Part shown: positions 6,663 through 35,812 of the stretch, one piece after another
How the letters are laid out: the number at the start of each line of letters is the position of its first letter
Numbering within the stretch: position 1 is the first letter of the stretch
NCBI GenBank assembly: GCA_046262595.1
Contig: JBHEMM010000012.1
Span: 407 to 36,224, forward strand
Direction of reading: 5' to 3'
Length of the DNA stretch: 35,818 nucleotides
Source: Vulcanimicrobiaceae bacterium
GTDB taxonomy: Bacteria > Vulcanimicrobiota > Vulcanimicrobiia > Vulcanimicrobiales > Vulcanimicrobiaceae
The notes under the pieces: model-generated
The model's input: only the letters and a program-made list of their open reading frames with translations
Database searches by the model: none
What the model was told of the DNA's origin: nothing
Position numbers and translations under genes: made by a program

Positions 6663-6669
6663 TCCCGCT

Positions 6670-6697: not shown

Positions 6698-6814
6698 GTT
6701 GCCTAACAAAATATATGGAAGCGCGTTATCGCGCACGAACCGTGCGATCCATCGACGCCCGTTAAAGCAACCGGGTGATTGGCGAAAAGCAAGCGCACAG
6801 AAGACACGTGCCCG

Positions 6815-6841
6815 TGATCCGCCGCGTATGTCCCGTCCGTC
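6815..6841 (+). promoter_or_regulatory. Putative ECF-sigma promoter (TGATCC-N17-CGTC) for the transporter/DUF4331/TPR operon
   Basis: TGATCC 6815-6820 and CGTC 6838-6841; mirrors the divergent element. Confidence 0.35.
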
Positions 6842-6935
6842 TGTATCATACGGATGCAAAAATATTTTCCAATAGCACAATCCAAACACCGCCGCGGCCC
6901 GTTGATGCGGTAATTCACCAACGAAAAGGGGCCGT

Positions 6936-8423: not shown

Positions 8424-9193
8424 AAAAACGCCTTACCGGTGTGGTTGCTGCGATTGCCCTTGCGGCAAGCGCACTGACGCTGTACACCGTTCATCCGACG
8501 CTCGCGTCGGATCACCAGGACTCACCCGTGACGCTCGCGCGTCCCGGCGCAGATATCACCGACCCGTACATCTTCCCGAGCCCGACCAATCCGAACAACG
8601 TGGTGATCGTCATGAACGTTCATCCGCTGATTCCGAGCGGACAGGGGCCGAGCACATTCTTCGACCCGGGCGTCGTCTATCAGATGAACTTCGACACGAC
8701 CTCGGAGAATGGTTCCACATTTCCCGCGCAGACGATTACGCGCAATCGCGTGATCCAGTTCAAATTCGGACAAGCCGGAACGAATCAAAGCGTGACCGTT
8801 TACGGTCCGGCCGCCGCGCCGACCACCGGCACGACGACGACGCTGACCGGTGCGGCGAGCGGAACCGGCACGATCAACACGCCGTTTACCGCCGGCTCGA
8901 TGCAAGTGTTTGCAGGCGCACGCGAAGATCCGTTCTTCTTCGACCTGGCGCAGTTCTTCAAAATACTTCCCGATCGCAATGCAGGCAGCACCGCGCCGAG
9001 CTGCTTGCCCACGCCCCTTGGCGGCAACAACACCTGCCCGCAGGGCTTTAATCCACCCGGTACCGCGACGGACACCTTAAAAGGATTCAACGTCCTTGCC
9101 ATGGTCGTCGAATTGCCGCGAACCGCGCTGCAAGGCGGCGGCGGATCAAAAATCGCGTTTTGGGTTTCCACCCACACGGTCTCGGGCCGTTAG
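8420..9193 (+). CDS. DUF4331-family exported protein, N-terminal half only
   Basis: Signal peptide, ASDHQDSP, DITDPYIF, FAGAREDPFFFDLAQFFKILPDRN; collinear with the first half of 5292-6662. Confidence 0.85.
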   Translation: MKKRLTGVVAAIALAASALTLYTVHPTLASDHQDSPVTLARPGADITDPYIFPSPTNPNNVVIVMNVHPLIPSGQGPSTFFDPGVVYQMNFDTTSENGSTFPAQTITRNRVIQFKFGQAGTNQSVTVYGPAAAPTTGTTTTLTGAASGTGTINTPFTAGSMQVFAGAREDPFFFDLAQFFKILPDRNAGSTAPSCLPTPLGGNNTCPQGFNPPGTATDTLKGFNVLAMVVELPRTALQGGGGSKIAFWVSTHTVSGR

Positions 9194-9202
9194 GAGTATC
9201 AC

Positions 9203-9874
9203 ATGAAACAGATTGCAAAACTCATTGGTACGGCTGCCGTATGCGCCGTCGCGTTCACCGGATGCCTGGGCGGCAACGGGGGCGGCAACGGAACGAACCC
9301 GGCGGGCCCGTCATCGTATCAGCAATTAGATCGTCTGAACCGTCCCGCGGTCAACGAAGTCTTCGCCTCGTTTGCGCAGCATCAGCAAAACAACGTGGAT
9401 CTGCCGAGCGACGATCCGGCGGTCCTTAAACCCGAAATCGTCGCGTTCATGACGAACGTTGCCGGCCGCCGCGCCGACATTGCGAACGTCGAAGGAACCG
9501 TGCTCACCCCCGACGTGCAAATTGCGGACCTGAGCGGCACGAGCACGTCGTGCATCGGAACGGCGCCCGGCACATGCAACAACTATCTCGGCGTTGAAAC
9601 AGGCGGCGCAACGCAGGCGCCCGGGGCGCTCAAGCCGTTCGGCGGCCGCGCGCTGACCGACGACATCGTCGACATCTCGCTCTCCACGATCTTCGGCTCA
9701 ACGATTCCGGCCTTACGGCTCGTGCCGACGGACGATAACAAGGAACAGGACGGGCGCGCGGATTCGTCCTTTCCGAGCGGTCACCGGCCGCAACTCACGA
9801 CCGACGGCGTGAGCTGGCAGACCGCCCCGAAACACTTCACGACGTCGTTCCCGTATCTGGGCGCGCCGCAGTAG
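9203..9874 (+). CDS. DUF4331-family C-terminal-half protein, predicted lipoprotein
   Basis: SD AGGAG; lipobox-like FTGC; QLDRLNRPAVNE, FGGRALTDD, FPYLGAPQ. Confidence 0.8.
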   Translation: MKQIAKLIGTAAVCAVAFTGCLGGNGGGNGTNPAGPSSYQQLDRLNRPAVNEVFASFAQHQQNNVDLPSDDPAVLKPEIVAFMTNVAGRRADIANVEGTVLTPDVQIADLSGTSTSCIGTAPGTCNNYLGVETGGATQAPGALKPFGGRALTDDIVDISLSTIFGSTIPALRLVPTDDNKEQDGRADSSFPSGHRPQLTTDGVSWQTAPKHFTTSFPYLGAPQ

Positions 9875-11103
9875 TGAAAAGCCTGCCCGGGTGGACGGTT
9901 CTTGCAGCGATCGCGCTTGCCGCGATCGCTGCGTGGCCGTTGATGCCGCATACCGCTCGTGCGTCCTCGGGCGCGTATGTGGCGCCCGTGCAGCCGGACT
10001 ACGCGCTGCGCGATCAGACCGTCGCGTTCTACGAAAAACGTGTACGTGATGACCGGCGCGATCAAATCAGCGCCGCTCTGCTGGGCGGCCAATATATGCA
10101 GCGCTACCGTGAATCGGGCGATGTCGACGACATCACGCGTGCGCTTGCGCAAGCGCAGCGCGCGCTCAAACTTCAACCGCAGAACAACGCGGGCGCGGAA
10201 GGCCTTATCGGCTCCGCGTACACGGCTCTGCATAAGTTCCGCGACGCTCTGCGCTACGAAACGCTCGCGCATGCCGAACAGCCGTACGACTCGAATGCAC
10301 CCGCGCAAATGGCCTCGCTCGACATGGAACTGGGCCGCTACGGCCCCGCGAAGATCATGCTTTTCAAAGCCGCAGCGATAAGGAACACGCCGACGGTTAT
10401 GGCTGTCCGGGCGCGGTACGAAGAACTCACAGGTCATCTGGATCGCGCGGCGCGTCTGCTGCAGCGCGCGATGGAAGAGACCGACGGCAACTACGACAAC
10501 AGCGCTCAAGGCCGCGCTTGGTATCATTTCCGGTTGGGCGAGGTGCTTTTTGAATCGGGCGATATGGCCGGAGCGCAGAAGCGCGAGCGGGAAGCGATCG
10601 CCATTTTTCCGAACCTGGAACTTGCGTACCGGGCGCTCGCGCGCGATTGCTTCTACGCCAACGATTGGCGCTGCGCGCTGGACGCGGGAACCAAAGGCGC
10701 CAACATCATTCCGGTACCGGAGACGCTCGGTTATAAAGCCGATGCGCAGCAAGCCCTGGGCGATGCGGCCGGCGCCGCGCAAACGCGGCAACTGATCGGC
10801 GCGATCGAGCGCATCGGAAACGCGTATCATCTGAACGATCGTTTGCTTGCAATGTACTACGCCGATCACCATCTGCGCCCGGATGACGCCTATCGTATCG
10901 CGCAGCGCGAAGTGGCATTGCGCGGCACGGAGATCTATGCGCAGGATACGCTCGCGTGGGCGGCAGCGATGGACGGCAAATGGGATGTCGCACAACGTGC
11001 GGCAAAGCGTGCGGCGCGCTACGGCACGCAGGACCCGCGCATCACATATCACGCGCGGTACATCGCGCAGCACCGCAGCCCCACTCACCCCCAGGGGCGT
11101 TAG
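9874..11103 (+). CDS. Exported tetratricopeptide-repeat protein
   Basis: Signal peptide; repeated Ala-rich helical TPR-like units; DTLAWA motif; TAGTG overlap with the upstream gene. Confidence 0.85.
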   Translation: MKSLPGWTVLAAIALAAIAAWPLMPHTARASSGAYVAPVQPDYALRDQTVAFYEKRVRDDRRDQISAALLGGQYMQRYRESGDVDDITRALAQAQRALKLQPQNNAGAEGLIGSAYTALHKFRDALRYETLAHAEQPYDSNAPAQMASLDMELGRYGPAKIMLFKAAAIRNTPTVMAVRARYEELTGHLDRAARLLQRAMEETDGNYDNSAQGRAWYHFRLGEVLFESGDMAGAQKREREAIAIFPNLELAYRALARDCFYANDWRCALDAGTKGANIIPVPETLGYKADAQQALGDAAGAAQTRQLIGAIERIGNAYHLNDRLLAMYYADHHLRPDDAYRIAQREVALRGTEIYAQDTLAWAAAMDGKWDVAQRAAKRAARYGTQDPRITYHARYIAQHRSPTHPQGR

Positions 11104-11105
11104 AT

Positions 11106-12224
11106 ATGGCTCGCGCTTTCACGGTTTCCGCTCTTGCACACGTGGCCCGGTGCGCGGTCCCGGGCGTGCGGCGCAGCGTAGCACAGATATATCTTTTTCT
11201 CACGCTGCTGAATGCTGCGGCGTGGGTGTTGGCATTCGTTGCCTTTTCGGGCAGGCCGATTCTGATCGGTGCGGCATTGCTCGCATACACTTTCGGTTTG
11301 CGTCATGCCGTCGACGCCGATCATATTTCGGCAATCGACAACGTTACGCGCAAACTGATGCACGAGCGAAAGCAGCCGGTCACCGTCGGCTTGTTCTTCT
11401 CGCTTGGACACTCGACGGTCGTTGTCGCGCTTTCCGTCGCGATTGCGGCCGGCGCGGCGTTCATGAAAGTGCATCTGCCTGGGCTGCAAAGCGTGGGCAC
11501 GGTGGTCGGAACTTCGGTTTCGGCCGGTTTCCTCTTAGTAATTGCCGCAATCAATATCTTGGTGCTAAGCGATATCGCACGCGCTTTCCGCCGCGCGCAT
11601 GACGGCGAATCGTTTGACGAGGCCGGCTTGAACGCCGTGCTCGATCAGCGCGGATTGATGGGCCGGCTGTTCCGTCCGCTTCTGAAGATTGCCGACGCGC
11701 CGTGGAAGATGTATCCGGTCGGCCTGCTTTTCGGCCTGGGGTTCGATACGGCGACGGAAGTGGGATTGCTCGGCATTGCCGCTGTTCAAGGCGGAAAGGG
11801 ATTGCCGGTCTACGACATTCTGATCTTTCCGCTCCTTTTCACGGCGGGAATGTGCCTGTTGGACACCACCGACGGCATTTTAATGCTTCGTGCATACGGC
11901 TGGGCTTTCGTCAAGCCGATGCGCAAGCTGTACTACAACATGGTCATCACGCTGGTGTCGGTTCTCGTGGCGCTCGTCATCGGTGGCATTGAAGCGTTAA
12001 ACGTGATTTCGTCGCAGCTCCATTTGGACGGCATGTTTTGGCGCGCCGCTGCGGGTGCCGGGGCGCAGTTCGGCACGCTGGGGTTCATTGTGGTGGGCAT
12101 TTTTCTGGGAAGCTGGGCCGTCTCGACGATCGTGTATAAGGTCAAGCGCTACGACGAGTTGGACCTCGTGGCGGAGCCCGCCGGCCTGCAGCGGGGCGGC
12201 GGCCGGCCGGCCAAGGCCGCTTAA
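11106..12224 (+). CDS. HoxN/HupN/NixA high-affinity nickel/cobalt permease (NiCoT)
   Basis: GLRHAVDADHISAID, FFSLGHSTVV, LFGLGFDTATE, GMCLLDTTDG. Confidence 0.95.
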   Translation: MARAFTVSALAHVARCAVPGVRRSVAQIYLFLTLLNAAAWVLAFVAFSGRPILIGAALLAYTFGLRHAVDADHISAIDNVTRKLMHERKQPVTVGLFFSLGHSTVVVALSVAIAAGAAFMKVHLPGLQSVGTVVGTSVSAGFLLVIAAINILVLSDIARAFRRAHDGESFDEAGLNAVLDQRGLMGRLFRPLLKIADAPWKMYPVGLLFGLGFDTATEVGLLGIAAVQGGKGLPVYDILIFPLLFTAGMCLLDTTDGILMLRAYGWAFVKPMRKLYYNMVITLVSVLVALVIGGIEALNVISSQLHLDGMFWRAAAGAGAQFGTLGFIVVGIFLGSWAVSTIVYKVKRYDELDLVAEPAGLQRGGGRPAKAA

Positions 12225-17014: not shown

Positions 17015-18187
17015 ATGCAGCTGTTCGATCCGGCAGAACACGAGCCGCTCTCTTCCAAACCGTGGAACGATACCATTGCATGCGATTTCATTTGCGATGT
17101 CGTATCGGCAGCAGATTTGTCCTTCGATCCCGCGCTTGGCTGGCCGATGCATCCCGAAGACCGGTACGGTGAGGAACCGCGGCCGCTGGACCGCGGCGTC
17201 TATTCGGGGCTCTGCGGCACCGCGTGGACGGTTTCTAAGCTGGCAGCGTCGTACGGCATGACGCTGCGCAACAACTATGCCGCCGCAGTGCAAGCTGCCG
17301 CTGCCGAGATGCAGGTCCCTTCGTTTTTCATGGGCCGGGCCGGCGCATACGCGTCATGGTACGCAATTGCCAAGGAAGAGCAAGCCCTTGATGGCATTGA
17401 GGCCGCGGTGCAGGAAAACGCGGGCAACGTAACCCACGAGATGTTTTGGGGATCGCCCGGCAGCGCGATTGCGGCGCTGCTGGTGCGCGAATTTTCCGGA
17501 ACGACGCGCTTTGACGGCCTGTTGCGAGCCGTCCAGAACGAAATGTGGGACTCGTGGCGCAGCGGTGAAGAAGATGCCGCTCTGCTGTGGGTGCAAGACA
17601 TGTACGGACGGCGCCAATTTTACGTCGGAGCCGGGCACGGCGCATTCGGAAATCTCACCGTCTTTGCGCGCGCTATCGATCTGCTGTCGCCGAGCCGGCG
17701 CAATGAGCTGCACGAACGCGTCGTTGCGCTGCTCGATCGTTACGTTCTTCGTGACGGCGATGCGGCGAATTGGTTTTCCCTGGGTGACCCACTATCGGGC
17801 AACCGTATGCAATGGTGCCATGGGGCGCCCGGCGCTATCATAAGCCTGTCGGCATACCCCACCGTCGATCGCCATATCGAAACCCTTTTGAAAGCGGGCG
17901 GCGAAGGTATTTGGCGGGCAGGCCCGATCCGCAAAGGTCCGGGTCTGTGCCACGGAACCGCGGGCAATGGTTACGCCTTGCTGCGCCTGGCGCAGCGAAC
18001 CGGAGATGCGGTCTGGCTCGAACGCGCGCAGCGTTTCGCTATGCACGCTATCGAGCAGGCTGCGCGCTGGCGTGTTGAGTTCGGAATGCGTTCGTACAGC
18101 TTATGGACCGGCGAACTTGGTGTTGCAGCATTTGCCGACAGTGTGCTGCGGCACGATGCGGCGTTTCCCGCACTCGAGCTTTTGTAG
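17015..18187 (+). CDS. LanC-like (lanthionine synthetase C-like) protein, stand-alone
   Basis: GAGHGAFG, QWCHGAPG, GLCHGTAGNG (Zn-ligand Cys, Cys-His), SLWTG. Confidence 0.88.
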   Translation: MQLFDPAEHEPLSSKPWNDTIACDFICDVVSAADLSFDPALGWPMHPEDRYGEEPRPLDRGVYSGLCGTAWTVSKLAASYGMTLRNNYAAAVQAAAAEMQVPSFFMGRAGAYASWYAIAKEEQALDGIEAAVQENAGNVTHEMFWGSPGSAIAALLVREFSGTTRFDGLLRAVQNEMWDSWRSGEEDAALLWVQDMYGRRQFYVGAGHGAFGNLTVFARAIDLLSPSRRNELHERVVALLDRYVLRDGDAANWFSLGDPLSGNRMQWCHGAPGAIISLSAYPTVDRHIETLLKAGGEGIWRAGPIRKGPGLCHGTAGNGYALLRLAQRTGDAVWLERAQRFAMHAIEQAARWRVEFGMRSYSLWTGELGVAAFADSVLRHDAAFPALELL

Positions 18188-25579: not shown

Positions 25580-25798
25580 ATGTTCGATATCTCTGGACCA
25601 CTGTTGGACGCGCTCTCCGGCGCGAGCGCGCAACTCTCGCAAGCCGCCTCGCAAACGGCTCGCGCGCAAACACCGCTGGGTACGGCGAGCTCCGACGCTG
25701 CGATGGCTTCGCTCGCTCAGCGCACGCTGTTCACGGAAGCCCTCCTGAGCGCCGTTCACGCGCGTTTGGCGGAAGTGAAAAACGTGACGCATGGGTAG
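25580..25798 (+). CDS. flgB: Miniature, divergent FlgB-like proximal rod protein
   Basis: First gene before flgC-fliE-fliF; ASQTARAQTP echoes ANNIANADTP; only 72 aa. Confidence 0.5.
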   Translation: MFDISGPLLDALSGASAQLSQAASQTARAQTPLGTASSDAAMASLAQRTLFTEALLSAVHARLAEVKNVTHG

Positions 25799-26123
25799 TT
25801 TGGAGATGCTGCAAACGGCAGCGGCAGGCATGGAAGCGCAGCGCGCTGCGCTGGATGTGGCCGCGCGAAACATTGCCGCCGCGCAAGCCGCCGGCCCGCT
25901 CGGTTCGTACGAAAGGGCCGTACCGCAGTTTCGCCTGACGAACGATGGCGACGAACCGCAGATCGCCTTCAACGGCACGCGCGTCGAGCGCGGCAGCAGT
26001 GTAAATGCCTTGACGGAAATGGTCAGCGTCTTGAACGCCTCGCGCGCGTACGAAGCGAACGCCTCGGTTTTTGAAGCGGGCAAACAACTCGCGCTGCGCA
26101 CGATCGACATGGGCAAAGTATGA
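25791..26123 (+). CDS. flgC: Flagellar basal-body rod protein FlgC-like (short)
   Basis: AAGMEAQR..LDVAARNIA and VN...EMV....ASRAYEAN. Confidence 0.85.
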   Translation: MGSLEMLQTAAAGMEAQRAALDVAARNIAAAQAAGPLGSYERAVPQFRLTNDGDEPQIAFNGTRVERGSSVNALTEMVSVLNASRAYEANASVFEAGKQLALRTIDMGKV

Positions 26124-26386
26124 GGGTCGAAATGCTCGTTCCCGACGCCGCGCCCGCGCGCGTTACGAGCGCGCCCGATGGGAACGCGTTCACTTCCATG
26201 CTGGATGACGTTGGAGCCGTGCTCGCAAAAGCGGAAGGCGCCGAGGACGCGTTTGCCAGCGGCGGCGGCGATCTGCAATCCGCCGTGTACGAGCGCGCCC
26301 GCGCCGACGTCGCGCTCTCCGTTGCAACCGCAGCTGCGCAGCGGTCGGCACAGGCGCTGCAAACGCTCGCAAACATGCAGGTGTAA
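26120..26386 (+). CDS. fliE: Flagellar hook-basal body protein FliE-like
   Basis: F...L...., A...G..DL, RA.VAL, C-terminal MQV; synteny. Confidence 0.8.
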   Translation: MRVEMLVPDAAPARVTSAPDGNAFTSMLDDVGAVLAKAEGAEDAFASGGGDLQSAVYERARADVALSVATAAAQRSAQALQTLANMQV

Positions 26387-26389
26387 GGC

Positions 26390-27841
26390 TTGGACGTTGC
26401 TGCGCTGCTGGCGCGTTGGCCCTCGCTGCATCCGCGCGTCCGGGTAGTGGCCATCGGCGCTGCGGCGTTTGCAATCGTTGCAGTCGTCACGATGGCCGTC
26501 GTGACGCAAACGCAGCGCGCCGCGCTGTTCGCAGCCCCGCTGCACAGCGAGCAGCTCGCCGAGGTGCAGGAGCGCTTGGCAAGCTGGAATATTGCGTTTA
26601 CGCCGCTTGCCGACAACGTGCTCGTCGATGCCGGGCGGCGCAACGACTTGCTGCTCAAACTCTCGCTGGCGGGTGTGCCCCACGCGCATGTCGAGGACAG
26701 CAGTGAAATGCTCGGTAAAGTCGGCGCGCTGACGCCGCAAGAAGTGATCGACGCACAGACGCGCGAGGGCTTGGCCGGCGACATCGCGCTCGGATTGCGC
26801 GGAATTCAAGGCGTGCAGGACGCTACGGTGATCGTTGCGCCCGCAAAAACGGGCTCCTTCGCCGACGAGCAAAGCCGCGACGCCAGCGCCAGCGTGCGGT
26901 TGCGCACGAGCGCCGGCGCAGCGCTCTCGCCCGATGCCGTCGCGGGCGTGCGCGCCTTCGTTGCGGCGAGCGTTCCCGGTTTGACGGCCCGCAACGTGAC
27001 GATCGTTGACGACAGCGGAACCGCGCTCGATGAAAACACTGCGGGCGGCAGCGAAAACGACTTGCAGCGCTCGCTCCAGTCGGCGCTCGATGCGGCGCTC
27101 GGAGCGGGCAGCGCGATCGTCCGCGTGCACGTCGAATACGATCGGCGCGCGATCACCAGCAAGGACGTGCGCCGCTCGCCGCTCGGCAGTTTACCGATCG
27201 GGGCGGCGATGCAAGACGAACGCTTCGCGGGCGAAGGCAAACGCTATGACCGCTCGGCGCGCCAGCTCGATCGCGGCAGCGACACGCGCGAGAGCGTGGC
27301 GACTCTCGAGAGCGCCCGTGTTGCGCGCATAAGCGCCGCCGTTGTCGTCGACGCGGCGCGCGGCGCCGATCTGGCGCAAGTTCGTGCTCTTTCGGCCGCC
27401 GCACTGGGCCTCGATCGCACGCGCGGCGATTCGCTCGACGTCGAAGCGGTGGCTTTTGCGCGCACGCGGCCCACGCAGAAAGACGGATGGTGGCTCGCGT
27501 ACGGCGCGATCGTTCCGCTGCTGCCTACCGTTGTGATCAGCATTGCGCTGCTGATTGCGTTGCGCTGGAGCCGCGAGCCGCTGCGCATGGTGCTGCGTTC
27601 GCTGCGAACCGCGCATACGGCGCGCGCCGTCCGCGGCATTGCGCCCGAGGCGGTCAAAGGCGCGCTGCGCGGCGAACCGCCGTACGCCGCCGCAGCGATC
27701 ATCAGCGCGCTGCCTGCCGCGACGGCGGCGGCAGTCCTGGACCTGTATCCGCAATCCGAACGTGGAGCGATCATCCGGCGCATGCAGCGGCCCCCCTCGC
27801 CGCTCTTCCCCGACGCCGAGCGCTTTATCGCCGATGCCTGA
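26390..27841 (+). CDS. fliF: FliF-like MS-ring protein with a C-terminal FliG-middle-domain-like extension
   Basis: N-terminal TM, ASASV.L, VAASVPGL...NVTIVD..G, IVRVHVEYD, RISAAVVVD, LD.TRGD.L.V, second TM, then GEPPYAAAAIISALP...AAVL..YP...R..IIRRM. Confidence 0.85.
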   Translation: MDVAALLARWPSLHPRVRVVAIGAAAFAIVAVVTMAVVTQTQRAALFAAPLHSEQLAEVQERLASWNIAFTPLADNVLVDAGRRNDLLLKLSLAGVPHAHVEDSSEMLGKVGALTPQEVIDAQTREGLAGDIALGLRGIQGVQDATVIVAPAKTGSFADEQSRDASASVRLRTSAGAALSPDAVAGVRAFVAASVPGLTARNVTIVDDSGTALDENTAGGSENDLQRSLQSALDAALGAGSAIVRVHVEYDRRAITSKDVRRSPLGSLPIGAAMQDERFAGEGKRYDRSARQLDRGSDTRESVATLESARVARISAAVVVDAARGADLAQVRALSAAALGLDRTRGDSLDVEAVAFARTRPTQKDGWWLAYGAIVPLLPTVVISIALLIALRWSREPLRMVLRSLRTAHTARAVRGIAPEAVKGALRGEPPYAAAAIISALPAATAAAVLDLYPQSERGAIIRRMQRPPSPLFPDAERFIADA

Positions 27842-28319
27842 AACGTTTCGTACGTTTGCCGAACTTTTGCGTCCCGTTTGCGCGCCCGCCGAAGAAACGA
27901 TTGCGCCAACGCCGCAGCCATGCGCGCAGCCGGACGATGCGCTTGAGGAAAGCGATCTCGCATGCGACGGCGTCCTGCGCGAGTACCGCCTCTTCCGGGC
28001 GCAGCTTTCGCAAGCGCTCGAAAGCGCGTTTCTCATGCTTTTGAACGATATTGCGGCGGACGTGCTCGGGCGCGAGCTGCAGCTGCAGGAGCCGGAGTTG
28101 CAAAAGATTCTGCGCAGCGCGCTCGCGCGTTTCGCGCAGGATGAGCCGCAGCGCATTCGCGTCCATCCGGCCGATCGCAGCGCACTCGTTTTGCCGGTGC
28201 CCGTGGAAGCCGATGAGTCGCTGCGGCGCGGCGATGCGATTCTGGAGATGCGTTTCGGCCACGTCGATGCGCGCCTCGGCGTTCGTCTCGCGGCGGTGCT
28301 GGACGCGTACGCGCAATGA
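27834..28319 (+). CDS. fliH: FliH/SctL-like stator-stalk protein (short)
   Basis: IA..VLGREL, IRVHPAD, DESLRRGD.ILE..FG.VDARL. Confidence 0.82.
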   Translation: MPETFRTFAELLRPVCAPAEETIAPTPQPCAQPDDALEESDLACDGVLREYRLFRAQLSQALESAFLMLLNDIAADVLGRELQLQEPELQKILRSALARFAQDEPQRIRVHPADRSALVLPVPVEADESLRRGDAILEMRFGHVDARLGVRLAAVLDAYAQ

Positions 28320-29458
28320 TCGCTTACGGAACTGTCGCCGGCGCGCAGAACGGCTTGCTGCGCGTGCGTTTGCCGGGGGCGCGCGTGGGCCAAGCCATTG
28401 CCGTGCGCACCGATGCCGGAGAAATCGACGCGCTGATCACGGCGCTGGACGAGTGCGGTGCGTTAGCGTCCGCGATGCAGGGCATTGACGGGATCCGCAC
28501 GGGCGCCGCCGTGCGCAGCTGCGGGCGCGATACGCGAACCGCGTTGCCGCGCGCGCCCCTTCCCTCGGAGCGGCATCCGCTGACCGACCCGCTTTGGACG
28601 GGCGTGCGCGTCATTGATGCGCTGCTCACTATTGCGCGCGGCGCCCGTGTGGGTATTTTCGGGCCGCCCGGCGCCGGAAAATCGACGCTGCTGCACGCCA
28701 TTGCCGCGAACGCGCGCGCCGACGCTGCGGTGATCGCGCTGGTTGGCGAACGCGGACGCGAAGCCGAAGAATGGATGCGCGCTGCCCCTGCGCATGCGAC
28801 GGTGTTGTGTGCCACCGGCGACCGTCCGGCGGCGCGCCGCATTGCGTGCGCGAGTGAGGCGATGGCCAAGGCGAGCGAACTGCGCCGCCGCGGCCTGCAC
28901 GTGCTTCTTATTGTGGACAGTCTCGCGAGGTACGCCAACGCGCTGCGCGAACGCGCCGTCGCAAGCGGTGAGACGTGCGGACGCGGTGGCTATCCGCCGG
29001 GCGTCTTCGCGCAGCTCGCGCGCTATACCGAGATTGCCGGGAGCGCGCAGGGCGGATCGATGACCCTCATCGCCAGCGTGCTTTCCGACGGCGACGACCG
29101 CGATCCGGTCAGTGAGGCGGTGCGCTCGCTGCTCGACGGCCATTGGCAGCTGTGCCCGCGTCTCGCGCAAGCCGGCCATTTCCCCGCAATCGACGTGCTG
29201 CAAAGCGTCAGCCGGACGATGCCGCAGGTCGCATCATCAGAGCATCTGGGCAACGCGCAAACCGTGCGGGCCGGTATCGCGCTGCTGGCACGGAGCGCTG
29301 ATGCGCGCTCGCTCGGCCTGCTTCCTGCGGACGATGCGACGCGCCGCGCAGCGCAGGCGGAAGAGGCGGTCACTGCTTTTTTGCGCCAAGGCGGCCAGGC
29401 GGAACGGCCCGCGGCGGCGCTATCGGCGCTGGCCGCCCTTGCCGATACCTTGAGGTGA
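28316..29458 (+). CDS. fliI: FliI/SctN type III export ATPase (internally shortened)
   Basis: TGVRVIDALL, Walker A GPPGAGKST, LVGERGRE, Walker B LLIVDSLAR, GYPP, LDGH, FPAIDVLQSVSR. Confidence 0.9.
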   Translation: MIAYGTVAGAQNGLLRVRLPGARVGQAIAVRTDAGEIDALITALDECGALASAMQGIDGIRTGAAVRSCGRDTRTALPRAPLPSERHPLTDPLWTGVRVIDALLTIARGARVGIFGPPGAGKSTLLHAIAANARADAAVIALVGERGREAEEWMRAAPAHATVLCATGDRPAARRIACASEAMAKASELRRRGLHVLLIVDSLARYANALRERAVASGETCGRGGYPPGVFAQLARYTEIAGSAQGGSMTLIASVLSDGDDRDPVSEAVRSLLDGHWQLCPRLAQAGHFPAIDVLQSVSRTMPQVASSEHLGNAQTVRAGIALLARSADARSLGLLPADDATRRAAQAEEAVTAFLRQGGQAERPAAALSALAALADTLR

Positions 29459-30024
29459 AAGCGATGGACATTTTCAACGATATCGCGGCCGTCACGCGCC
29501 GCATCGCCGAGATCACCGGTCAGCCTGCCGCAGCGCCCTCCGCCGCGGCCGGCGACTTTTCGGGCATGGTCTCGTCGGCGATGGGCGACGGCGCGCCGCC
29601 GCTCGCGCCGACGCAGGGACCGAATGTGATTCCGCCGCCGCAAATCAACACGATGGTGGACATCAATGCCGGCCAGTTCGGCGTCGATCCCGCGCTCATC
29701 AAAGCCATTATGGTGAACGAATCGGGTTTCGACTCCAACGCGACCTCGAAGACGGGCGCGCAAGGTTTGATGCAACTCGAACCGGAGACCGCCGCCGGCT
29801 TGGGTGTAGACAACGCCTACGATCCGGCGCAGAATATTTCTGGGGGGACGCGTTACATTCGCAGCCTCCTCGAGCGTTTCCATGGTGACCTGCGTTTGGC
29901 GATTGCGGCATACAACGCGGGGCCGGGGGCGGTCGAAAAATACGGCGGTGTTCCACCTTATGCGGAAACTCAGAATTACGTTCAAAACGTGCTGGCGAGC
30001 TACCGGCAGTACAAAGCACCATAG
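29455..30024 (+). CDS. Soluble lytic transglycosylase (SLT domain)
   Basis: VDPALIKAI..NESGF, GAQGLMQL, AAYNAGPG, PPYAETQNYV. Confidence 0.93.
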   Translation: MKAMDIFNDIAAVTRRIAEITGQPAAAPSAAAGDFSGMVSSAMGDGAPPLAPTQGPNVIPPPQINTMVDINAGQFGVDPALIKAIMVNESGFDSNATSKTGAQGLMQLEPETAAGLGVDNAYDPAQNISGGTRYIRSLLERFHGDLRLAIAAYNAGPGAVEKYGGVPPYAETQNYVQNVLASYRQYKAP

Positions 30025-31621
30025 CGCGCTTGCGCTGCTAAGCGCACTGGCTTTCTTCGCTTGCGCGTTGCCGGCGCCGGCGCAAACCGCAACACCGGCC
30101 GCAGCCGCAGCCGCAACGCTTGCAAGCGTGCTTGCCGCCCGCACCGCCGCGCTCAAAGCGCTGCACGTGCGCGCGCCGCAATCGCTGCAGGTGATGGGCA
30201 CGATTGAAGGCGCGGGTTTGGGCGGGCGCTTTCATAGTTGGTCTTCCCCGCGCGGACAGCGCTACGATCAGACGATCGGCACGCGGCTGCAAAGCACATA
30301 CCGCACGGCCGGCGGCCGCCTCTTCGCCGTTGACGAAAACGCAAACGTGCGGGAGATGCGCGGCTTGATGCTGCAGCGCCAAATCACGGGCGACTTTATC
30401 GACCAAGAGGGCTTTGCGGCGGCGCCGCAGTTCGACACGTTCAACGGTCCGCTGAAACTCGCCGATGGACGGCAGGCGTATGCGATCGAAGTGCAGCCGA
30501 AAGGCGGTTTGCCCGAAGAGATCGATCTCGATGCAAAAACATGGATGATCGATCGCATCAGCTACGACGAATCCGACGGCATCAGCAGCGCCGACTTTTA
30601 CGATTACAAAACCTATCAAGGCGCGCTGGTTGCGCTCCGCGAGATCGATTCCAACGGCGATCGGCCGTTCGATTTGACGCGCACGGCCGTGCGCATCGTC
30701 GTGGACGGCAGCATTCCGCCCGCCGTGTTCGACGTTCCGAAGAATAACGAGATCGTTACCGATGTGCCGGTGACGGTACCGCTCGCCGATCATCAGGGCC
30801 ACTATTACACCAAAGTGAGCATCCATGGGCATCCGTACACGTTTTTAGTGGATACGGGCGCGCAAGCGATCGTTTTGGATACGCACGTGGCGAAGGACTT
30901 GGGATTGGTTCCCGAAGGCAAGCTCGAGGTTTACGGCGCGCAGCGCATAGGCGGCTTGGGAATCGCCGCGCTCGATGCGATGCAGATCGGTTCCGCCACA
31001 CTGCCGCTCAAATCCGTGAGCGTGCTCGATCTGCGCAACGTCACCGGCAATACGTTTGAAGCGGACGGCGTGCTCGGCTATCCGTTTTTTGCCTCCGCCG
31101 AAGTGCAGGTCGACGCCGCGAATCATACGATGACGTTCGGACGGCCGGGAAGCTTGCACGCCGCCGGTTCGACGATTCCAATCGACGTCGACCGCGAGCT
31201 GATCGAAATGCAGGGGCGCGTCAACGGCGTGCGCGGACGCTTCGTGCTGGACACCGGCAACAGCGGCGAGCTGCTGCTGTTCGCTCCGTTTATGCGCGCG
31301 CATCCCAACCTGCTGCCGCCGCAGGATCATGCCTTCGCGAATAGTTTCGGCGTAGGCGGCGCTGCGCAAGCGATGTCGGCGTTCGTCGACGAACTGGACA
31401 TGAGCGATTTCCGCTTCTTCAACCGCTACTCGAATTTAATGCTCTCCAGCCAGGGCGCGTTCGCGGACCGCTTCGACGCCGGCAACATCGGCATGGGGGT
31501 CTTGCGCAACCTGGTCGTCACGTTCGACGTCGCGAACGCGCACGCGTATGCCTCGCAGTCCAACGCCTTCGACGACGGACGCTACCGCTCGCGACCCGAA
31601 ACGTCCACATTTCCGAAGTAA
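29960..31621 (+). CDS. Exported retropepsin-like aspartyl protease with tandem protease domains (start uncertain)
   Basis: Signal peptide; FLVDTGA...DGVLG and FVLDTGN...GNIGM. Confidence 0.8.
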   Translation: MRKLRITFKTCWRATGSTKHHSALALLSALAFFACALPAPAQTATPAAAAAATLASVLAARTAALKALHVRAPQSLQVMGTIEGAGLGGRFHSWSSPRGQRYDQTIGTRLQSTYRTAGGRLFAVDENANVREMRGLMLQRQITGDFIDQEGFAAAPQFDTFNGPLKLADGRQAYAIEVQPKGGLPEEIDLDAKTWMIDRISYDESDGISSADFYDYKTYQGALVALREIDSNGDRPFDLTRTAVRIVVDGSIPPAVFDVPKNNEIVTDVPVTVPLADHQGHYYTKVSIHGHPYTFLVDTGAQAIVLDTHVAKDLGLVPEGKLEVYGAQRIGGLGIAALDAMQIGSATLPLKSVSVLDLRNVTGNTFEADGVLGYPFFASAEVQVDAANHTMTFGRPGSLHAAGSTIPIDVDRELIEMQGRVNGVRGRFVLDTGNSGELLLFAPFMRAHPNLLPPQDHAFANSFGVGGAAQAMSAFVDELDMSDFRFFNRYSNLMLSSQGAFADRFDAGNIGMGVLRNLVVTFDVANAHAYASQSNAFDDGRYRSRPETSTFPK

Positions 31622-31652
31622 CGCGGTAACATCCGCCCGCTACGCTGGGCGC
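31619..31652 (+). promoter_or_regulatory. Conserved upstream motif, copy 1
   Basis: TAACGCGGTAACATCCGCCCGCTACGCT-N6-ATG. Confidence 0.7.
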
Positions 31653-32195
31653 ATGACGATCACCGAGCATCTGCAGTTCAACGTCTTGAGCGCGCCGCTC
31701 GCCCAGGCCGACCGCCGCGCGCTCTCGCAGGCATGGTACTCCGCACTGTATGGCGAGCGCCAAGGCGGCGTTTCGGTCGCGCACCGCTCTCCCGTGACCG
31801 CCGCGTCTGGCGCCGGACGGCGTGCACCGCGCGCGCAGAGCGCAGCGGCACCGGCGTCCGCTTCTTGCGAGGCGCCCAAACGCAACGCCGCTGCGCAATC
31901 TGCCGTCCGGGGCGCCGCCCCCGACCGCCGCGCGGGGCGCTCCGCGCTTGCGCGCAAGATCGAACAAACGCTGCTGCGCCCGCACGTTCGCGTAAAGAAC
32001 GCCACGTTCGTCTTGGCACAAGGCCGTGCGCGCGTGCATATCGTCCTTCGTACGCAAGGCGCGCGCGTGCTGCTCATCGCGCTTTGCCCGCAGCGCGAGC
32101 GCGATTGCGTGTCGCGCGCGCTGGCGCAGGCGCGCTTTGCGTTGGCGGCGCGAGGCGTCGCGCTGCAAACGCAGTTGGAGGAGGCGAGCCCGTGA
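31653..32195 (+). CDS. FliK C-terminal (hook-length-control/SctP-like) domain protein, divergent
   Basis: Low-complexity Ala/Arg/Pro linker, then beta-beta-beta-alpha pattern ending ALAQARFALAARGVAL; position after fliI and before a rod/hook gene. Confidence 0.5.
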   Translation: MTITEHLQFNVLSAPLAQADRRALSQAWYSALYGERQGGVSVAHRSPVTAASGAGRRAPRAQSAAAPASASCEAPKRNAAAQSAVRGAAPDRRAGRSALARKIEQTLLRPHVRVKNATFVLAQGRARVHIVLRTQGARVLLIALCPQRERDCVSRALAQARFALAARGVALQTQLEEASP

Positions 32196-32872
32196 TGATC
32201 TCCGATGCCTCCACGCGCGCGCTCGATACGGTCGCGCAGCGCGAACGCGAGGTGCTCGCGGATTTTGTGCCCGAAACGATCGCCAAGAGGTCGCAGCTGC
32301 CGCTGCGCGCGCCTTCCGGATCCTATTTCGTGAGCGGGGACCCGCAGCAGCGGCTCTATTCGCACGACGCAACGTTGAGCTTGCGCAAGGGCGAGCTGGT
32401 CGATCAAGACGGACGCCGGGCGCTGGGGTATGCGCGTCCGGGCGCGCCGCTCGACGTTTTGCGCGCGGATCCGCTTGACGTCGCGCTCGGCTTTACGGCT
32501 TCGCTGCGCGTCGCTTCCGACGGAAGCGTGTTGTACGATCGCTGGAGCATCGATCCGAAAACCGGCATGCGCGAACCGTACACGACGAGCATCGGTTCGC
32601 TCGCGGTTGCGCGCTTCTCGAGCGCGCTGCAGTTGCAAACGCATGGGAGCGCGGCGTTCAGCGCACCGGCGGGCGCCGTTCCGCATACGGGTACGGCGAA
32701 CGCTGACGGCTTCGGCGCACTCGAAACGCTCGGCGACCCGCAGACGCCCCGCGTCGATGCCGACCTGCGTTTGATCCGCTTGCAGGAAGCCTATCTCGCA
32801 TTGGACGCGTTGCGTTCCGCCGGCAAAGCGCAGAGCTCGCTCGACAAGACGGCGATGGATCTGCTGAAGTGA
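32192..32872 (+). CDS. Divergent flagellar rod/hook (FlgE/F/G-family) protein
   Basis: SGSYFV...LYSHDATLSLRKGELVDQDG..ALG, IGSLAVARF, VD....LIRLQEAY; SD GGAGGAGG. Confidence 0.7.
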   Translation: MMISDASTRALDTVAQREREVLADFVPETIAKRSQLPLRAPSGSYFVSGDPQQRLYSHDATLSLRKGELVDQDGRRALGYARPGAPLDVLRADPLDVALGFTASLRVASDGSVLYDRWSIDPKTGMREPYTTSIGSLAVARFSSALQLQTHGSAAFSAPAGAVPHTGTANADGFGALETLGDPQTPRVDADLRLIRLQEAYLALDALRSAGKAQSSLDKTAMDLLK

Positions 32873-33633
32873 ACGTGCTCTGCTTCGAAGAAAATGTGCA
32901 CGTCACGGGCGGCCGGCGCATCCGGCGCGCGCATTTCGAGCGCCGTCCGGCACTCACTCTGAGCGCCGCTTCAGTGGTTGCGAACGCCGTGCGCGAAACA
33001 CTCGCTCCGCTTTTGCGGCAGACCCCCGGGGTGCGGTTGTTCGAACCGCTCGCGCCCGCGCCCAACGCGTGGAGCATCCTCGTATCGCGGTCAAGCGTGT
33101 TTCGCGCGCGTGGAGCGCGCACGGAAGCAGCGTTCGTCCTGCGGCCTGACGATGCGCTGGCACTCGCCGCGTCCGCATTCGGTGAGAAGGCACCCGCGCC
33201 GCGCGCCCTTTCCGGCTGCGAACACGCGGTATTGGAACGCGCGATGAGCGCGCTGCTTCCGGCGCTCGCGCCGCTTTGCGGCCCCGATGTGCGCGCTTGC
33301 ACGGGGAGCGGAACAGCATTTTCGGCCTACTTCGAGATCGTCATTGCCGCGTCGTCAACGTTCCGTTTGGGCGTCGCCGTTGCGGTGGATGCCGCGCCGG
33401 CAGCCGCCGGCACGCTGCGCTTAGCCGATTTGGAGGCCGTTCCAGTCGAGCTGACGGCCGAGCTGGCGCGCGGGAGCATATCGGCAAACGACGTTCTGGC
33501 CTTACGTCCGGGCGTGCTCGTGCCGATGATGACTAAGATAGGAGAGCGCGGCTGCCTTTTGCTGGGCGGCCGTGTCCTGGCGCGCGGCGCGTGCGGCGCG
33601 CTTGGCGAGCGTCATGCAATGCTGGTGGAATGA
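32869..33633 (+). CDS. Divergent FliM/SctQ-like C-ring protein (C-terminal SpoA domain)
   Basis: [13 protein letters not shown]...[15 protein letters not shown]; upstream of fliN. Confidence 0.7.
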
Positions 33634-33914
33634 TGATGATGGAACACAAGAAGAACGGGCTGACGGCGGACCAGCAAAACCTGGATCTGCTTATGAACGT
33701 TCCGCTGCAGATAACGGCGGAACTGGGCAAATGCAAGATGCCCGTTTCGGATATTCTCAAGCTCGGCACGGGCTCCGTCGTCGAACTCGACCGGCTCGCC
33801 GGCGGACCGGTGGACTTGCTCGTGAACAGCAAGCTCGTCGCGCGCGGCGAGGTGGTTGCCATCGATGAAAATTTCGGCGTGCGCGTCACCGAACTGATTC
33901 AGAAACCCGGCTGA
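33630..33914 (+). CDS. fliN: Flagellar switch protein FliN
   Basis: [51 protein letters not shown]. Confidence 0.94.
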
Positions 33915-33916
33915 CA

Positions 33917-33950
33917 TAACGCGGCAACATCCGTGCGCTACGCTTGCGCT
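33917..33950 (+). promoter_or_regulatory. Conserved upstream motif, copy 2
   Basis: TAACGCGGCAACATCCGTGCGCTACGCT-N6-ATG. Confidence 0.7.
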
Positions 33951-34607
33951 ATGGATGGACTGCTCGCAATCGCCAATCACGCGCGTGCCACGCTGCCGCT
34001 CGACGTCTTAGCGGCACTCACCCTGCTCTCAATCGCTCCCTTCGTGCTCGTGATGTCCACCTCGTTCGTGCGCATCGTGGTCGTGCTCTCGATCGTGCGT
34101 TCGGCAATCGGGGCGGCTGCGCTGCCTCCGAACACGGTTTTGACGGGGCTTGCGCTCATGCTCACGCTCGCGATTATGTCGCCCGCGCTCACGCGCATCA
34201 ACGAGCAGGCAGTGCAGCCGTATGCGCGCGGCGCGCTCTCGCAGTCGCAGTTCGTCACCCGGGCCGCCGCGCCGCTGCGCGAGTTCATGCTGCGCCAGAC
34301 GCATCTGGCCGACCTCGCGCTGTTCGAGCGCGTCGCCCGGCGGCCGTCGGAGGCGCCCGCGCACGCGCCGCTGAGCGTGGTGGTTCCGGCGTTTGTCGTC
34401 GGCGAACTGCGCGATGCATTTGCGATAGGACTCGCGCTGTATCTGCCGTTCGTCGCTATCGATCTAGCAGTCGCCTCGATTTTGATGGGCCTGGGCATGT
34501 TCATGCTCAGTCCGCCGGTGATTTCGCTGCCCGCGAAGTTGCTGCTATTCGTTATGGTGGACGGGTGGGCGCTCGTCTGCGGAGGCCTTGCAAGCTCGTT
34601 TAGATAA
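33951..34607 (+). CDS. fliP: Export gate protein FliP/SctR
   Basis: TSFVRIVVVLS..R.A.G...PPN.VL.GLAL, PAF..GEL..AF.IG, LPF..IDL, GMFMLSP, KLLLFVMVDGW. Confidence 0.93.
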   Translation: MDGLLAIANHARATLPLDVLAALTLLSIAPFVLVMSTSFVRIVVVLSIVRSAIGAAALPPNTVLTGLALMLTLAIMSPALTRINEQAVQPYARGALSQSQFVTRAAAPLREFMLRQTHLADLALFERVARRPSEAPAHAPLSVVVPAFVVGELRDAFAIGLALYLPFVAIDLAVASILMGLGMFMLSPPVISLPAKLLLFVMVDGWALVCGGLASSFR

Positions 34608-34617
34608 CGTGCGCCGC

Positions 34618-35514
34618 ATGCGCATCACGCACGCGCTGGCGACGCAGCGGCCGTTTTTCTCGTTCGAGTTTTTTCCGCCGCGTACGGACGAAGCACACCG
34701 CCACCTGCTCGAGGCCGCGTGGACGCTGCGCGCGCTGCGGCCTGCATTTGTTTCGGTGACGTACGGCGCGGGCGGCTCCACGCGCGCCCGCACGATTGAA
34801 GTTTCGAAGCAGATGCAAAGCGAGATCGGGTTAAACGTGATGGCGCACGTGACGTGCTCGGGTTCCTCACGCGCCGACCTGCGCGGCGTGCTCAACGATT
34901 TGGAAGCCGCCGGGATTCAAAACGTGCTTGCATTACGCGGCGATCCGCCCAAGGATGCGGCCGCATTCGAACCCGCGGCAAACGGTTTTTCCTACGCGAA
35001 CGAACTCGTCGCGATGCTCAAGCGGAACTACCGGTTCTGCATCGGCGGCGCGTGTTATCCGGAGAAACATATCGAAGCGGCCAGCTTTGCGGACGACCTG
35101 CAGTATCTCAAAATGAAGGTCGATGCCGGCGCCGAGTTCTTGATCACGCAGCTGTTCTTCGATAACGATAAATATTTTGCGTTCGTCGAGAAAGTGCGGC
35201 GCGCCGGCGTGAGGGTGCCGGTGCTGCCGGGCATCATGCCGATCACGAATTTCGAGCAGATCCGGCGTTTCACCGCGATGTGCGGCGCGACGGTGCCGCC
35301 GAAACTGCTCGCGGAGCTGGAAGCGCGTCGAGACGATCCGGAAGCTATCCAAGATTTGGGCGTCGCATTCGCGACGCTTCAGGCGGCGGAGTTGCTCGCG
35401 CGCGGAGCGCCCGGCATTCATTTTTACACGCTGAACAAATCGCCCGCGACGCGCGCCATTGTCAGCGCGCTGCTTGCGGCAACCGCGTGGAGATCGTTCA
35501 CACCACGGCCGTAA
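34618..35514 (+). CDS. metF: 5,10-methylenetetrahydrofolate reductase
   Basis: FSFEFFPP, SVTYGAGGS, LALRGDPP, YPEKH, ITQLFFD, PGIMP, HFYTLN; TAACGT -10-like hexamer 7 nt before the ATG. Confidence 0.96.
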   Translation: MRITHALATQRPFFSFEFFPPRTDEAHRHLLEAAWTLRALRPAFVSVTYGAGGSTRARTIEVSKQMQSEIGLNVMAHVTCSGSSRADLRGVLNDLEAAGIQNVLALRGDPPKDAAAFEPAANGFSYANELVAMLKRNYRFCIGGACYPEKHIEAASFADDLQYLKMKVDAGAEFLITQLFFDNDKYFAFVEKVRRAGVRVPVLPGIMPITNFEQIRRFTAMCGATVPPKLLAELEARRDDPEAIQDLGVAFATLQAAELLARGAPGIHFYTLNKSPATRAIVSALLAATAWRSFTPRP

Positions 35515-35545
35515 GCCGGTAACAATCGGGCGTTACGCTAACGCC
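35512..35545 (+). promoter_or_regulatory. Conserved upstream motif, copy 3
   Basis: TAAGCCGGTAACAATCGGGCGTTACGCT-N6-ATG. Confidence 0.7.
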
Positions 35546-35812
35546 ATGACCGCATTCGAAGCGCTTCTTCGTGAGGCCCTGGTGGTGACCGCGGTGCTGT
35601 GCTTACCGGTCTTGGGTATCGCCACCCTTGTCGGCACCGCCGTCGCGGTCTTGCAAGCGGCAACGCAAGTGCAGGAGCAGACGCTCTCGCTGCTGCCCAA
35701 ACTGCTTGCTGTCGGTTTGGCGCTCGCCGCGTTCGGCAGCTTCGGACTGCACCTTTGCGCGCGGCTTTTCGGCGACGTGGTCGCACAGATTCCCGGATTG
35801 GTGCGCGGTTGA
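35546..35812 (+). CDS. fliQ: Export gate protein FliQ/SctS
   Basis: LP.L....VG..VAVLQAATQVQEQTLS..PKL. Confidence 0.92.
   Translation: MTAFEALLREALVVTAVLCLPVLGIATLVGTAVAVLQAATQVQEQTLSLLPKLLAVGLALAAFGSFGLHLCARLFGDVVAQIPGLVRG

Follow-up and report, generated by a model that had tools for sequence, protein, structure and literature searches.

What does a cluster of flagellar genes build when the genes for motor and propeller are missing from it? The question arises in a 35,818-nucleotide stretch of a Vulcanimicrobiaceae genome (GenBank assembly GCA_046262595.1, contig JBHEMM010000012.1; G000:C12:407-36224 in our numbering), the whole of which we call the window and which has runs of N at both edges. 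From position 25580 to the window end runs a tightly packed plus-strand operon, its frames overlapping or abutting and translationally coupled, in the order 72-residue open reading frame (ORF), flgC, fliE, fliF, fliH, fliI, SLT, aspartic protease, fliK-like, FlgE-like, fliM-like, fliN, fliP, metF, fliQ. Working type III machines are known as rotating flagella or as injectisomes, the latter in host-associated Proteobacteria and Chlamydiae. Comparison across relatives makes it probable that the operon encodes neither, and instead specifies a type III export apparatus derived from a flagellum, a basal body without propeller or motor, which is vertically inherited throughout the phylum Eremiobacterota and here takes a form specific to the class. 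We refer to this apparatus as the reduced system.

Parts were identified from an ORF listing with Pfam and NCBIfam scans, and the weaker ones through orthologue alignments used in profile searches of PDB sequences (Table 1). Together these confirmed the flagellar gene order and the intact, overlapping frames described in a first-pass annotation made from the letters alone, while adding three genes that its series had passed over: an SLT lytic transglycosylase and an aspartic protease gene between fliI and the fliK-like gene, and metF between fliP and fliQ. The same annotation had recognised no fliJ, flgD, fliL, fliO or motAB in the span, and our scans recognised none of them there either. Its FlgB did not survive: the 72-residue ORF received no Pfam or NCBIfam support, its PDB profile search returned chance-level matches only, and hhalign against two real FlgB proteins gave a probability below 1%, so that FlgB is a possible identity by position only. 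Tested for kinship with the flagellum, the system was found to hold the export gate (FliP/Q/R, FlhB and FlhA), the membrane and supramembrane (MS) ring protein FliF and the rod proteins FliE, FlgC, FlgF and FlgG, that is, all except FlgB. Also retained are FliH and FliI, a short FlgE-like protein, a putative FliK-like ruler, the SLT enzyme and a FliA-like sigma factor of its own. Profile searches of the genomes tested found no FliG N- or C-domain, MotA/B, FlgD, FlgH/I rings, junction proteins or flagellin for this system.

Functional motifs have been kept in the machinery that would drive export. The Walker A (P-loop) of FliI is retained in all 13 orthologues, and the NPTH cleavage site of FlhB in seven of eight. 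For the SLT protein the top NCBIfam model was 'flagellar assembly lytic transglycosylase', under its cut-off; a signal peptide was not seen. The gene holds its position in the family (f1), in the order (which includes a second family, f2), in another family of the same class (f3) and in the sister class, and its role is putatively FlgJ/EtgA-like. The fliK-like protein had no Pfam match, and the sister-class gene syntenic with it matches Flg_hook at E=4.9e-14; likewise, the f3 and sister-class genes syntenic with the 225-residue rod/hook gene carry LlgE_F_G_D1. In the fliM-like protein, sequence searches caught the SpoA domain only and PF02154 went unmatched. An AlphaFold2 model built from 52 sequences (predicted local distance difference test, pLDDT, 83.6) gave its top Foldseek matches to C-ring FliM of Salmonella (E=2.4e-12) and to crystal structures of FliM_M; as modelled, the protein is a true FliM fold, with a CheC-like middle domain and a SpoA C-terminal domain. 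It begins at the middle domain, without the N-terminal CheY-binding peptide, whereas the canonical FliM of the same genome begins MSSLSQEEIDALI. The peptide of FliM that binds phosphorylated CheY has the motif LSQxEIDALL.

The remaining rod genes lie at a second locus. Contig C37 of G000 carries a flgF-like and flgG-like pair and the FliA/WhiG-like sigma factor gene of the reduced system. Behind the FlgF/FlgG pair of the system come the sigma factor gene and a small ORF, which had no FlgM family match; in f3, a rod-binding (FlgJ-N-like) ORF sits between the FlgF/FlgG pair and the sigma factor region. The pair belongs with the reduced system and not with a canonical flagellum, because it is orthologous to the pairs of G007, G009 and G018 (FlgG 54-61% and FlgF 43-60% identical) and shares only 28-38% identity with the canonical pair of G000.

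That canonical flagellum is complete. FliG, stator, hook and flagellin genes, whose presence elsewhere the first-pass annotation had flagged as telling, do occur in G000, but they form a separate canonical flagellum on contigs C24, C5 and C21. C24 holds che genes, flhA, flhB, fliR/Q/P, a FliY-size fliN, fliM, motB, motA and flbD, together with a 605-residue flgE, flgD, fliK, fliI, fliH, fliG and fliF, and C5 holds flgB, fliE, flgF/G, flgH/I, flgK/L and one flagellin gene. All matches in G000 to FliG_C, MotB_plug, FlgD and FlgI, and all three Flagellin_N genes, fall on these three contigs. Parts common to both systems are present in two copies each, at 25-52% identity. A binning error that had joined C12 and C24 from different organisms was considered and dropped, as both systems share one closed chromosome in G012 and one 2.47-Mb contig (C1) in G008.

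We then examined distribution in 41 relatives (including the unpublished G011, G023 and G036) and in a 251-genome sample of the phylum (including the unpublished G023, G036, G193, G226, G244, G246 and G257), and no claim depends on the unpublished genomes alone. The records that hold related loci bear the names Candidatus Eremiobacteraeota, Vulcanimicrobiota or Baltobacteraceae. With E at 1e-46 or better, reduced-type FliF occurred in 38 of the 41 relatives and, in the larger sample, in 144/160 f1, 3/3 f2 and 18/18 f3 genomes, or 165 of 181 for the class; families outside f1-f3 gave weak FliF matches only (18/69 genomes). Gene order was identical in all eight family and order loci examined, from the 72-residue ORF or flgC to flhA as far as each locus reaches, with rpsI upstream in five and secDF downstream in six. 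The f3 operon is split in two with order kept, as flgC-fliE-fliF-...-fliI-SLT and fliK?-FlgE-like-fliM-fliN-fliPQR-flhBA-secDF. Around the window's operon, the contig continues past flhA with secD and then secF, and upstream lie panC, coaBC, coaX, dus, lysS, truA, thyA, rplM, rpsI and a DUF3810 gene, housekeeping genes that indicate a core-genome context and not an island. As a separate observation on FliF, a shorter form of ~430 residues, without periplasmic residues ~250-310, characterises the sub-lineage of G018, G105, G147, G171, G193, G196, G253 and G258.

This distribution stands apart (INDEPENDENCE from motility genes): FliG_C was found in 16/41 and Flagellin_N in 17/41 genomes, and 22 of the 41, including all 11 f3 genomes and the single-contig (closed) genomes G007, G009 and G018, have reduced FliF without a match to either. 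Put the other way, FliG_C is missing from 25 relatives, of which 22 hold the reduced system, and Flagellin_N from 24. This comparison supports the stripped-down, non-motile apparatus that had been proposed from the operon. G007, G009, G018, G037 and G032 each encode exactly three Flg_bbr_C proteins, namely FlgC and an adjacent FlgF/FlgG pair; their best FliG_M matches fall inside FliF (over cut-off in G007, G009 and G018, weak in G037 and G032), and none of the five gave a match to the C24 MotA. MotB_plug and FlgI were confined to G000 among five genomes searched (none in G007, G009, G018 or G037), and FlgD to the canonical locus of G000 among seven (none in G007, G009, G018, G037 or G032). 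Omp85/BamA was present in all five genomes checked, indicating that the cells are diderm.

How could a C ring be held without FliG? A separate fliG gene is absent, as first annotated, but FliF itself contains FliG-related sequence that the annotation had not seen: residues 419-466 match FliG_M (E=1.1e-5, 26 bits against a Pfam cut-off of 25). Nowhere in the cytoplasmic part of FliF is conservation across the class higher than in the tail segment E-P-P-H/Y-AAAAIISALPAATAAAVL..., and PF14841 was found in all 120 homologues listed, the best 120 of 1008 found. In hhalign the tail fell in register with the EHPQ region, where FliG_M begins, of one sister-class FliG, at a probability of only 2.7%. 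On this sequence evidence FliG has most likely been reduced to a FliG_M-like motif fused to the FliF C-terminus. Complex prediction for FliM(1-178) and FliF(404-483) gave a score of 0.79 (highest of three controls, 0.00), a mark reached by 116/157 solved complexes and 2/215 mismatched pairs, and one that measures likeness and not binding because FliG_M-FliM_M complexes have already been solved; docking runs showed at least 98% contact agreement with partner pLDDT of at least 82. The FliF tail is thus predicted to dock onto the FliM middle domain, with FliM 101-106 (loop F104-G105-E106) and helix 115-125 facing FliF 426-437 and 464-474. Positions at the interface are nearly invariant (FliM F104, G105, E106, S115 and E118; FliF E429, A434 and A435). 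We take the predicted interface to be the counterpart of the known FliG_M(EHPQR)-FliM(GGXG) interface.

These features suggest how the apparatus might work. FliG would have been cut to a ~50-residue FliG_M-like armadillo motif (EPP[HY]...) joined to the cytoplasmic end of FliF, and this tail would engage the middle domain of FliM by way of the same FliM surface (GGXG loop) that FliG_M of a canonical flagellum contacts with its EHPQR motif. A C-ring-like FliM/FliN platform, together with FliH/FliI, would in this way be fixed straight to the MS ring, with torque generation (FliG_C, stators) and switching (the CheY peptide) presumably discarded. Because the torque helix and the stator are missing, the machine would not rotate. 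It would act as an exporter driven by proton-motive force and ATP, sending out its own rod and hook-like parts first and, after a FliK/FlhB switch, further cargo into or across the diderm envelope. Of the secretion machine first envisaged, then, the stripped basal body is well supported and secretion itself is something we infer.

Several points weigh against such an exporter. Despite the presence of Omp85/BamA, neither a secretin nor an L/P ring was identified as an outer-membrane conduit, which is a difficulty for secretion past the periplasm, and a FlgE-like protein without FlgD may not polymerise as a hook. The sister-class form retains the FliG C-domain and may depend on it for some function. 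When the FliF tail was compared with two FliG proteins by BLASTP, no match was returned, the hhalign probability is low, and the docking score speaks to likeness, as set out above. The absences come from profile searches of mostly metagenome-assembled genomes, which a very divergent stator, filament or cap would escape, and the counts include three unpublished genomes in the smaller set and seven in the larger.

Where did the system come from? An FlhA search of 1.84 billion representatives gave 2464 matches with E no higher than 1e-30, of which only a handful exceeded 45% identity. In a 52-row FlhA tree (LG+C20 with posterior mean site frequencies, in quick and careful versions, without backbone resolution), reduced-system FlhA formed one clade (100/100), with protein P0004 as its sister (100/99), and the canonical FlhA of G000 was placed elsewhere and not as its sister. 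FlhA proteins 65-67% identical to P0004 were present in all five genomes examined from other Eremiobacterota classes, each 10-14 kb from a full FliG. In one of these sister-class genomes, G052, the operon reads flgB-flgC-fliE-fliF-fliG(N,M,C)-fliH-fliI-fliJ-SLT-fliK-FlgE-like(272 aa)-fliM-fliN-fliN-fliO-fliP-Q-R-flhB-flhA, which is the window's order plus the pieces missing there (fliG, fliJ and fliO). The shared series, flgB-flgC-fliE-fliF-(fliG)-fliH-fliI-(fliJ)-...-fliK-flgE-fliM-fliN-fliP-Q-R-flhB-flhA, is what we take to be the fla/che order of B. subtilis (Terrabacteria-type). Sizes in G052 (in residues: FlgB 137, FlgC 153, FliF 568, FliG 334, FliH 358, FliI 527, FliJ 153, FliK 314, FlgE-like 272, FliM 332, FlhB 401) bear out the initial impression that many of the window's parts are shrunken, for example FliH at 161 against 358 and FliI at 380 against 527. 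FlgD was not found in G052; across sister-class genomes, Flagellin_N was found in only 2/6 and MotB_plug over cut-off in 2/6, both with a second FlhA or FliG alongside. The history that needs the fewest assumptions starts from a phylum-wide flagellum derivative without filament or stators, from which the class Eremiobacteria then lost FliJ, FliO and all of FliG bar the FliM-docking motif.

The canonical flagellum has a different distribution, being patchy in the class sample (16/41 genomes). Its FlhA fell near those of Thermomicrobium and Curtobacterium in the quick tree (support 86) and on the backbone lacking resolution in the careful one; the patchiness and this placement hint that it was gained laterally or lost repeatedly. 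On a 668-bp contig, G000:C112:1-252 encodes a third FHIPEP fragment (profile positions 466-550), which has no DNA-level similarity to the flhA of C12 or C24, and sister-class genomes contain several stand-alone ORFs resembling the FlhA C-terminal domain.

Is the reduced system then an injectisome? Like an injectisome, it would be a non-rotating, flagellum-derived type III secretion system (T3SS) with a SctQ-like platform, an ATPase, a putative ruler and a lytic transglycosylase. Most components scored under both flagellar and Sct equivalog cut-offs (FlhA reached 631 bits against an NCBIfam cut-off of 772); FliI and FlhB leaned towards the Sct models SctN and SctU (for FliI, 304 bits against 279 for FliI_clade1, both under cut-off), and FlhA, FliP, FliQ and FliR leaned flagellar. 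No score passed a Sct equivalog cut-off, and FlhA lies outside the clade of SctV references (Aeromonas, Shigella, Sinorhizobium, Ralstonia and Mycetohabitans; 100/100). The cluster ORFs include no secretin SctC, SctD ring or SctF needle family, with no genome-wide secretin search made. Unlike an injectisome, the system keeps FliE, an FlgC/F/G rod and a FliF-type ring, and its platform appears to be anchored by the FliG_M remnant on FliF. In injectisomes the platform is anchored via SctD and SctK.

An independent parallel to injectisomes, as first suggested, may hold in that FlhA forms its own clade outside SctV, but union with SctV is not rejected: constraining the Eremiobacterota clade with SctV gave a log-likelihood 12.5 above the free quick tree (p=0.81 in the approximately unbiased test), for a group that was named after the tree had been seen and that involves long branches. 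Sisterhood of the two is compatible with the FlhA data and no firmer. One could go further and regard the system as the closest flagellar kin of the injectisome lineage alive today, a non-rotating exporter at the stage predicted before secretin capture, having lost filament and stators in the whole phylum and then FliG in the class. The lean of FliI and FlhB towards Sct profiles would fit this. The extension is tentative and on balance unlikely; long-branch attraction could give the same signal, and the grouping was chosen post hoc.

A doubtful alternative, which we weigh jointly in two variants, has the apparatus serve structure more than secretion, either as a membrane-remodelling or anchoring device (an envelope anchor, a nanotube or a 'hat'-type structure on a flagellar T3SS core) or as a checkpoint that exports nothing but its own parts and an anti-sigma factor governing a FliA-like regulon. 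Non-flagellar structures related to the flagellar T3SS have been reported (10.1101/2021.09.03.458937; PMC9380563), and the idea would suit both the lack of an identified outer-membrane channel or cargo and the linkage of flgF and flgG to the sigma factor gene and its small downstream ORF. Yet the ATPase module, putative ruler, FlhB switch site and SLT enzyme have been kept under selection, which is more than a static anchor needs, and that small ORF gave no match to the FlgM family.

It is improbable, next, that the system serves genuine motility, with a filament, stator and torque ring that have diverged beyond recognition. The appeal of this idea lies in the FliK-like, FlgE-like and FliA-like proteins, which normally serve steps towards filament assembly, and in the FliG_C of the sister-class form; the class form, however, is without FliG_C, and in the genomes tested for them there was no Flagellin_N, MotB_plug, FlgD or FlgI, nor an extra Flg_bbr_C protein that could be an FlgK. 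A cultured organism bears on the same question. According to its description, Vulcanimicrobium alpinus has no flagella by electron microscopy and no flagellin gene, moves by type IV pili, and has fliN as the single flagellar entry in Table S8 (PMC9758169). NCBI protein names among the FliF homologues listed suggest that it belongs to the same family, making the question directly testable.

We consider it very improbable that the system is an accessory basal body that works only with the canonical flagellum, as a cheaper motor or assembly variant borrowing FliG, stators, hook cap and flagellin. The two do co-occur in G000 and in 15 further genomes, among the 41, that have FliG_C, but 22 relatives keep the reduced system with no match to FliG_C or flagellin. 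Moreover, FliF has a predicted FliM-docking tail of its own and no FliG_N-binding end, and the low identity of shared parts and the separate placement of the two FlhA proteins speak against a working partnership.

Is the operon simply decaying? Against two relatives, dN/dS (nonsynonymous over synonymous substitution; NG86) was 0.07-0.55 over 16 cluster genes, imprecise because dS exceeds 0.88 (saturated) and the closest relatives are only ~65% identical. FliP, FliQ, FliN, FlhA, FlgC and SLT (0.07-0.19) lie in the range of housekeeping metF (0.12-0.18), and FliH and the FliK-like, FlgE-like and FliM-like proteins evolve fast (0.36-0.55). With frames intact across the class, these values, which are not the ratios near 1 and frameshifts that the first-pass annotation associated with decay, indicate that the reduced system is not a decaying remnant. 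The locus L026 (G001:C16, same genus) has frame breaks in flgC, SLT, protease and fliK-like genes; TGA stops in the canonical flhA of that genome suggest assembly error as likelier than decay. A remnant of a duplicated or ancestral flagellar operon is the least credible alternative and largely refuted, for although the sister class has longer versions of many parts, four of the parts here evolve fast, 16/160 family genomes lack a match and G001 has its frameshifts, coupled intact frames persist through family, order and class, catalytic and cleavage motifs are kept, and the core genes are constrained like metF.

Set beside known machines, the non-rotating export apparatus that we favour is probably a so far undescribed branch of type III secretion machines. 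It shares with the flagellum a homologous gate, FliH/I, FliF, FliE, FlgC/F/G, FlgE-like, FliK-like, FliM/N and FliA-like parts, and differs in lacking FliG N/C domains, stators, FlgD, junction proteins, flagellin, lipopolysaccharide and peptidoglycan (L/P) rings and the CheY-binding FliM peptide, in scoring mostly under flagellar equivalog cut-offs, and in a FliF that, as modelled, itself bears the FliM-docking motif. Buchnera makes filament-less hook-basal bodies without flagellin or stators that are thought to export proteins. They are reduced remnants of the only flagellum of a host-restricted symbiont and keep FliG and L/P rings, unlike the present system, which belongs to a free-living soil phylum, spans the three class families sampled with a related form in all five sister-class genomes, occurs alongside a true flagellum in some members and no longer has FliG as a protein of its own. 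Engineered Salmonella FliF-FliG fusions likewise join the MS-ring protein covalently to FliG sequence; they keep full-length FliG and still rotate, whereas here ~50 FliG_M residues appear to remain. The 'needleless' T3SS* of Myxococcus, another soil bacterium, is described as like a T3SS basal body without needle or external appendage, and as working with a Tad-like pilus in predation (PMC12075869); the present system differs in that its rod and ring proteins are flagellar. The 'hat' structures reported to be related to the flagellar T3SS are a near conceptual neighbour (10.1101/2021.09.03.458937). Full-text searches, with most subscription journals outside their scope, found no account of the system.

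If our reading holds, it would add a third, conserved type III form, found in a soil phylum that is free-living, abundant worldwide and hardly cultured. It would also represent a natural experiment in which FliG was apparently trimmed until the FliM-binding motif alone was left, attached to the MS ring, offering a testable model for the passage from motor to static secretion platform and a possible view of the path to the injectisome. Its function may bear on how Eremiobacterota deal with their envelope or neighbours, and for annotation in this phylum it warns that 'flagellar genes present' does not equal 'motile'.

Two genes of the operon have a narrower distribution. metF, a housekeeping passenger, is inserted in all seven f1 loci and missing at the f2 locus, in f3 and in the sister class. 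The aspartic protease has a signal-peptide-like N-terminus, an N-domain of unknown type and two DTG motifs; its gene stands with a complete frame between SLT and fliK-like genes in seven of eight f1/f2 loci (G001 has four frame-shifted pieces) and was not seen at the corresponding position in f3 or the sister class. Both were weighed as working parts of the machine; because they are confined to the family or order, we treat them as passengers of uncertain relevance. Protease paralogues of ~25% identity lie on C30, C19 and C48 of G000.

Table 1. Features of the reduced-system operon, in window positions unless a contig is named; the fliH start was chosen from conserved orthologue N-termini.
Feature	Position	Strand	Support
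72-aa conserved ORF at flgB position (possible FlgB remnant)	25580..25798	+	6/6 aligned relatives, 44-61% identity
flgC, proximal rod, 110 aa	25791..26123	+	Flg_bbr_C E=4.9e-8; TIGR01395 FlgC 58 bits, under cut-off
fliE, 88 aa	26120..26386	+	PF02049 E=5.1e-6
fliF, MS ring, 483 aa, FliG_M-like tail (residues ~417-468)	26390..27841	+	Pfam YscJ_FliF, YscJ_FliF_C, FliG_M
fliH, 161 aa (short)	27834..28319	+	PF02108 E=5.2e-10
fliI, export ATPase, 380 aa	28316..29458	+	ATP-synt_ab E=1.6e-58
SLT lytic transglycosylase, 189 aa	29455..30024	+	PF01464 E=1.3e-29
Secreted aspartic protease, two DTG retropepsin-like domains, 553 aa	29960..31621	+	Asp_protease_2 E=4.7e-16, two stretches
fliK-like, 180 aa, putative T3S4-type C-terminal domain	31653..32195	+	best PDB profile match FliK C-terminal domain 2rrl, only E=0.013
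Short FlgE/FlgG-type rod/hook protein, 225 aa	32195..32872	+	PDB profile matches FlgE E=5.1e-10, FlgG E=6e-4
fliM-like, 254 aa, FliM middle domain (as modelled) and SpoA domain	32869..33633	+	FliMN_C E=5.1e-11
fliN, 94 aa	33630..33914	+	FliMN_C E=1.2e-25; TIGR02480 103.7 bits, over cut-off
fliP, export gate, 218 aa	33951..34607	+	PF00813 E=8.4e-72; TIGR01103 231.7 bits, over cut-off
metF, methylenetetrahydrofolate reductase, 298 aa, between fliP and fliQ	34618..35514	+	PF02219 E=5.1e-97
fliQ, 88 aa	35546..35812	+	Bac_export_3 E=2.9e-20
fliR (N-terminus lost in gap), flhB 333 aa, flhA 674-704 aa; past 10-N scaffold gap at window end	C12:36235-39905		

Elsewhere in the window, positions 5292-12224 hold three DUF4331 genes, two NicO-type nickel/cobalt transporter genes and a TPR protein gene on both strands, and at 17015-18187 a LanC-like (lanthionine synthetase C-like) gene adjoins two ORFs without family matches.

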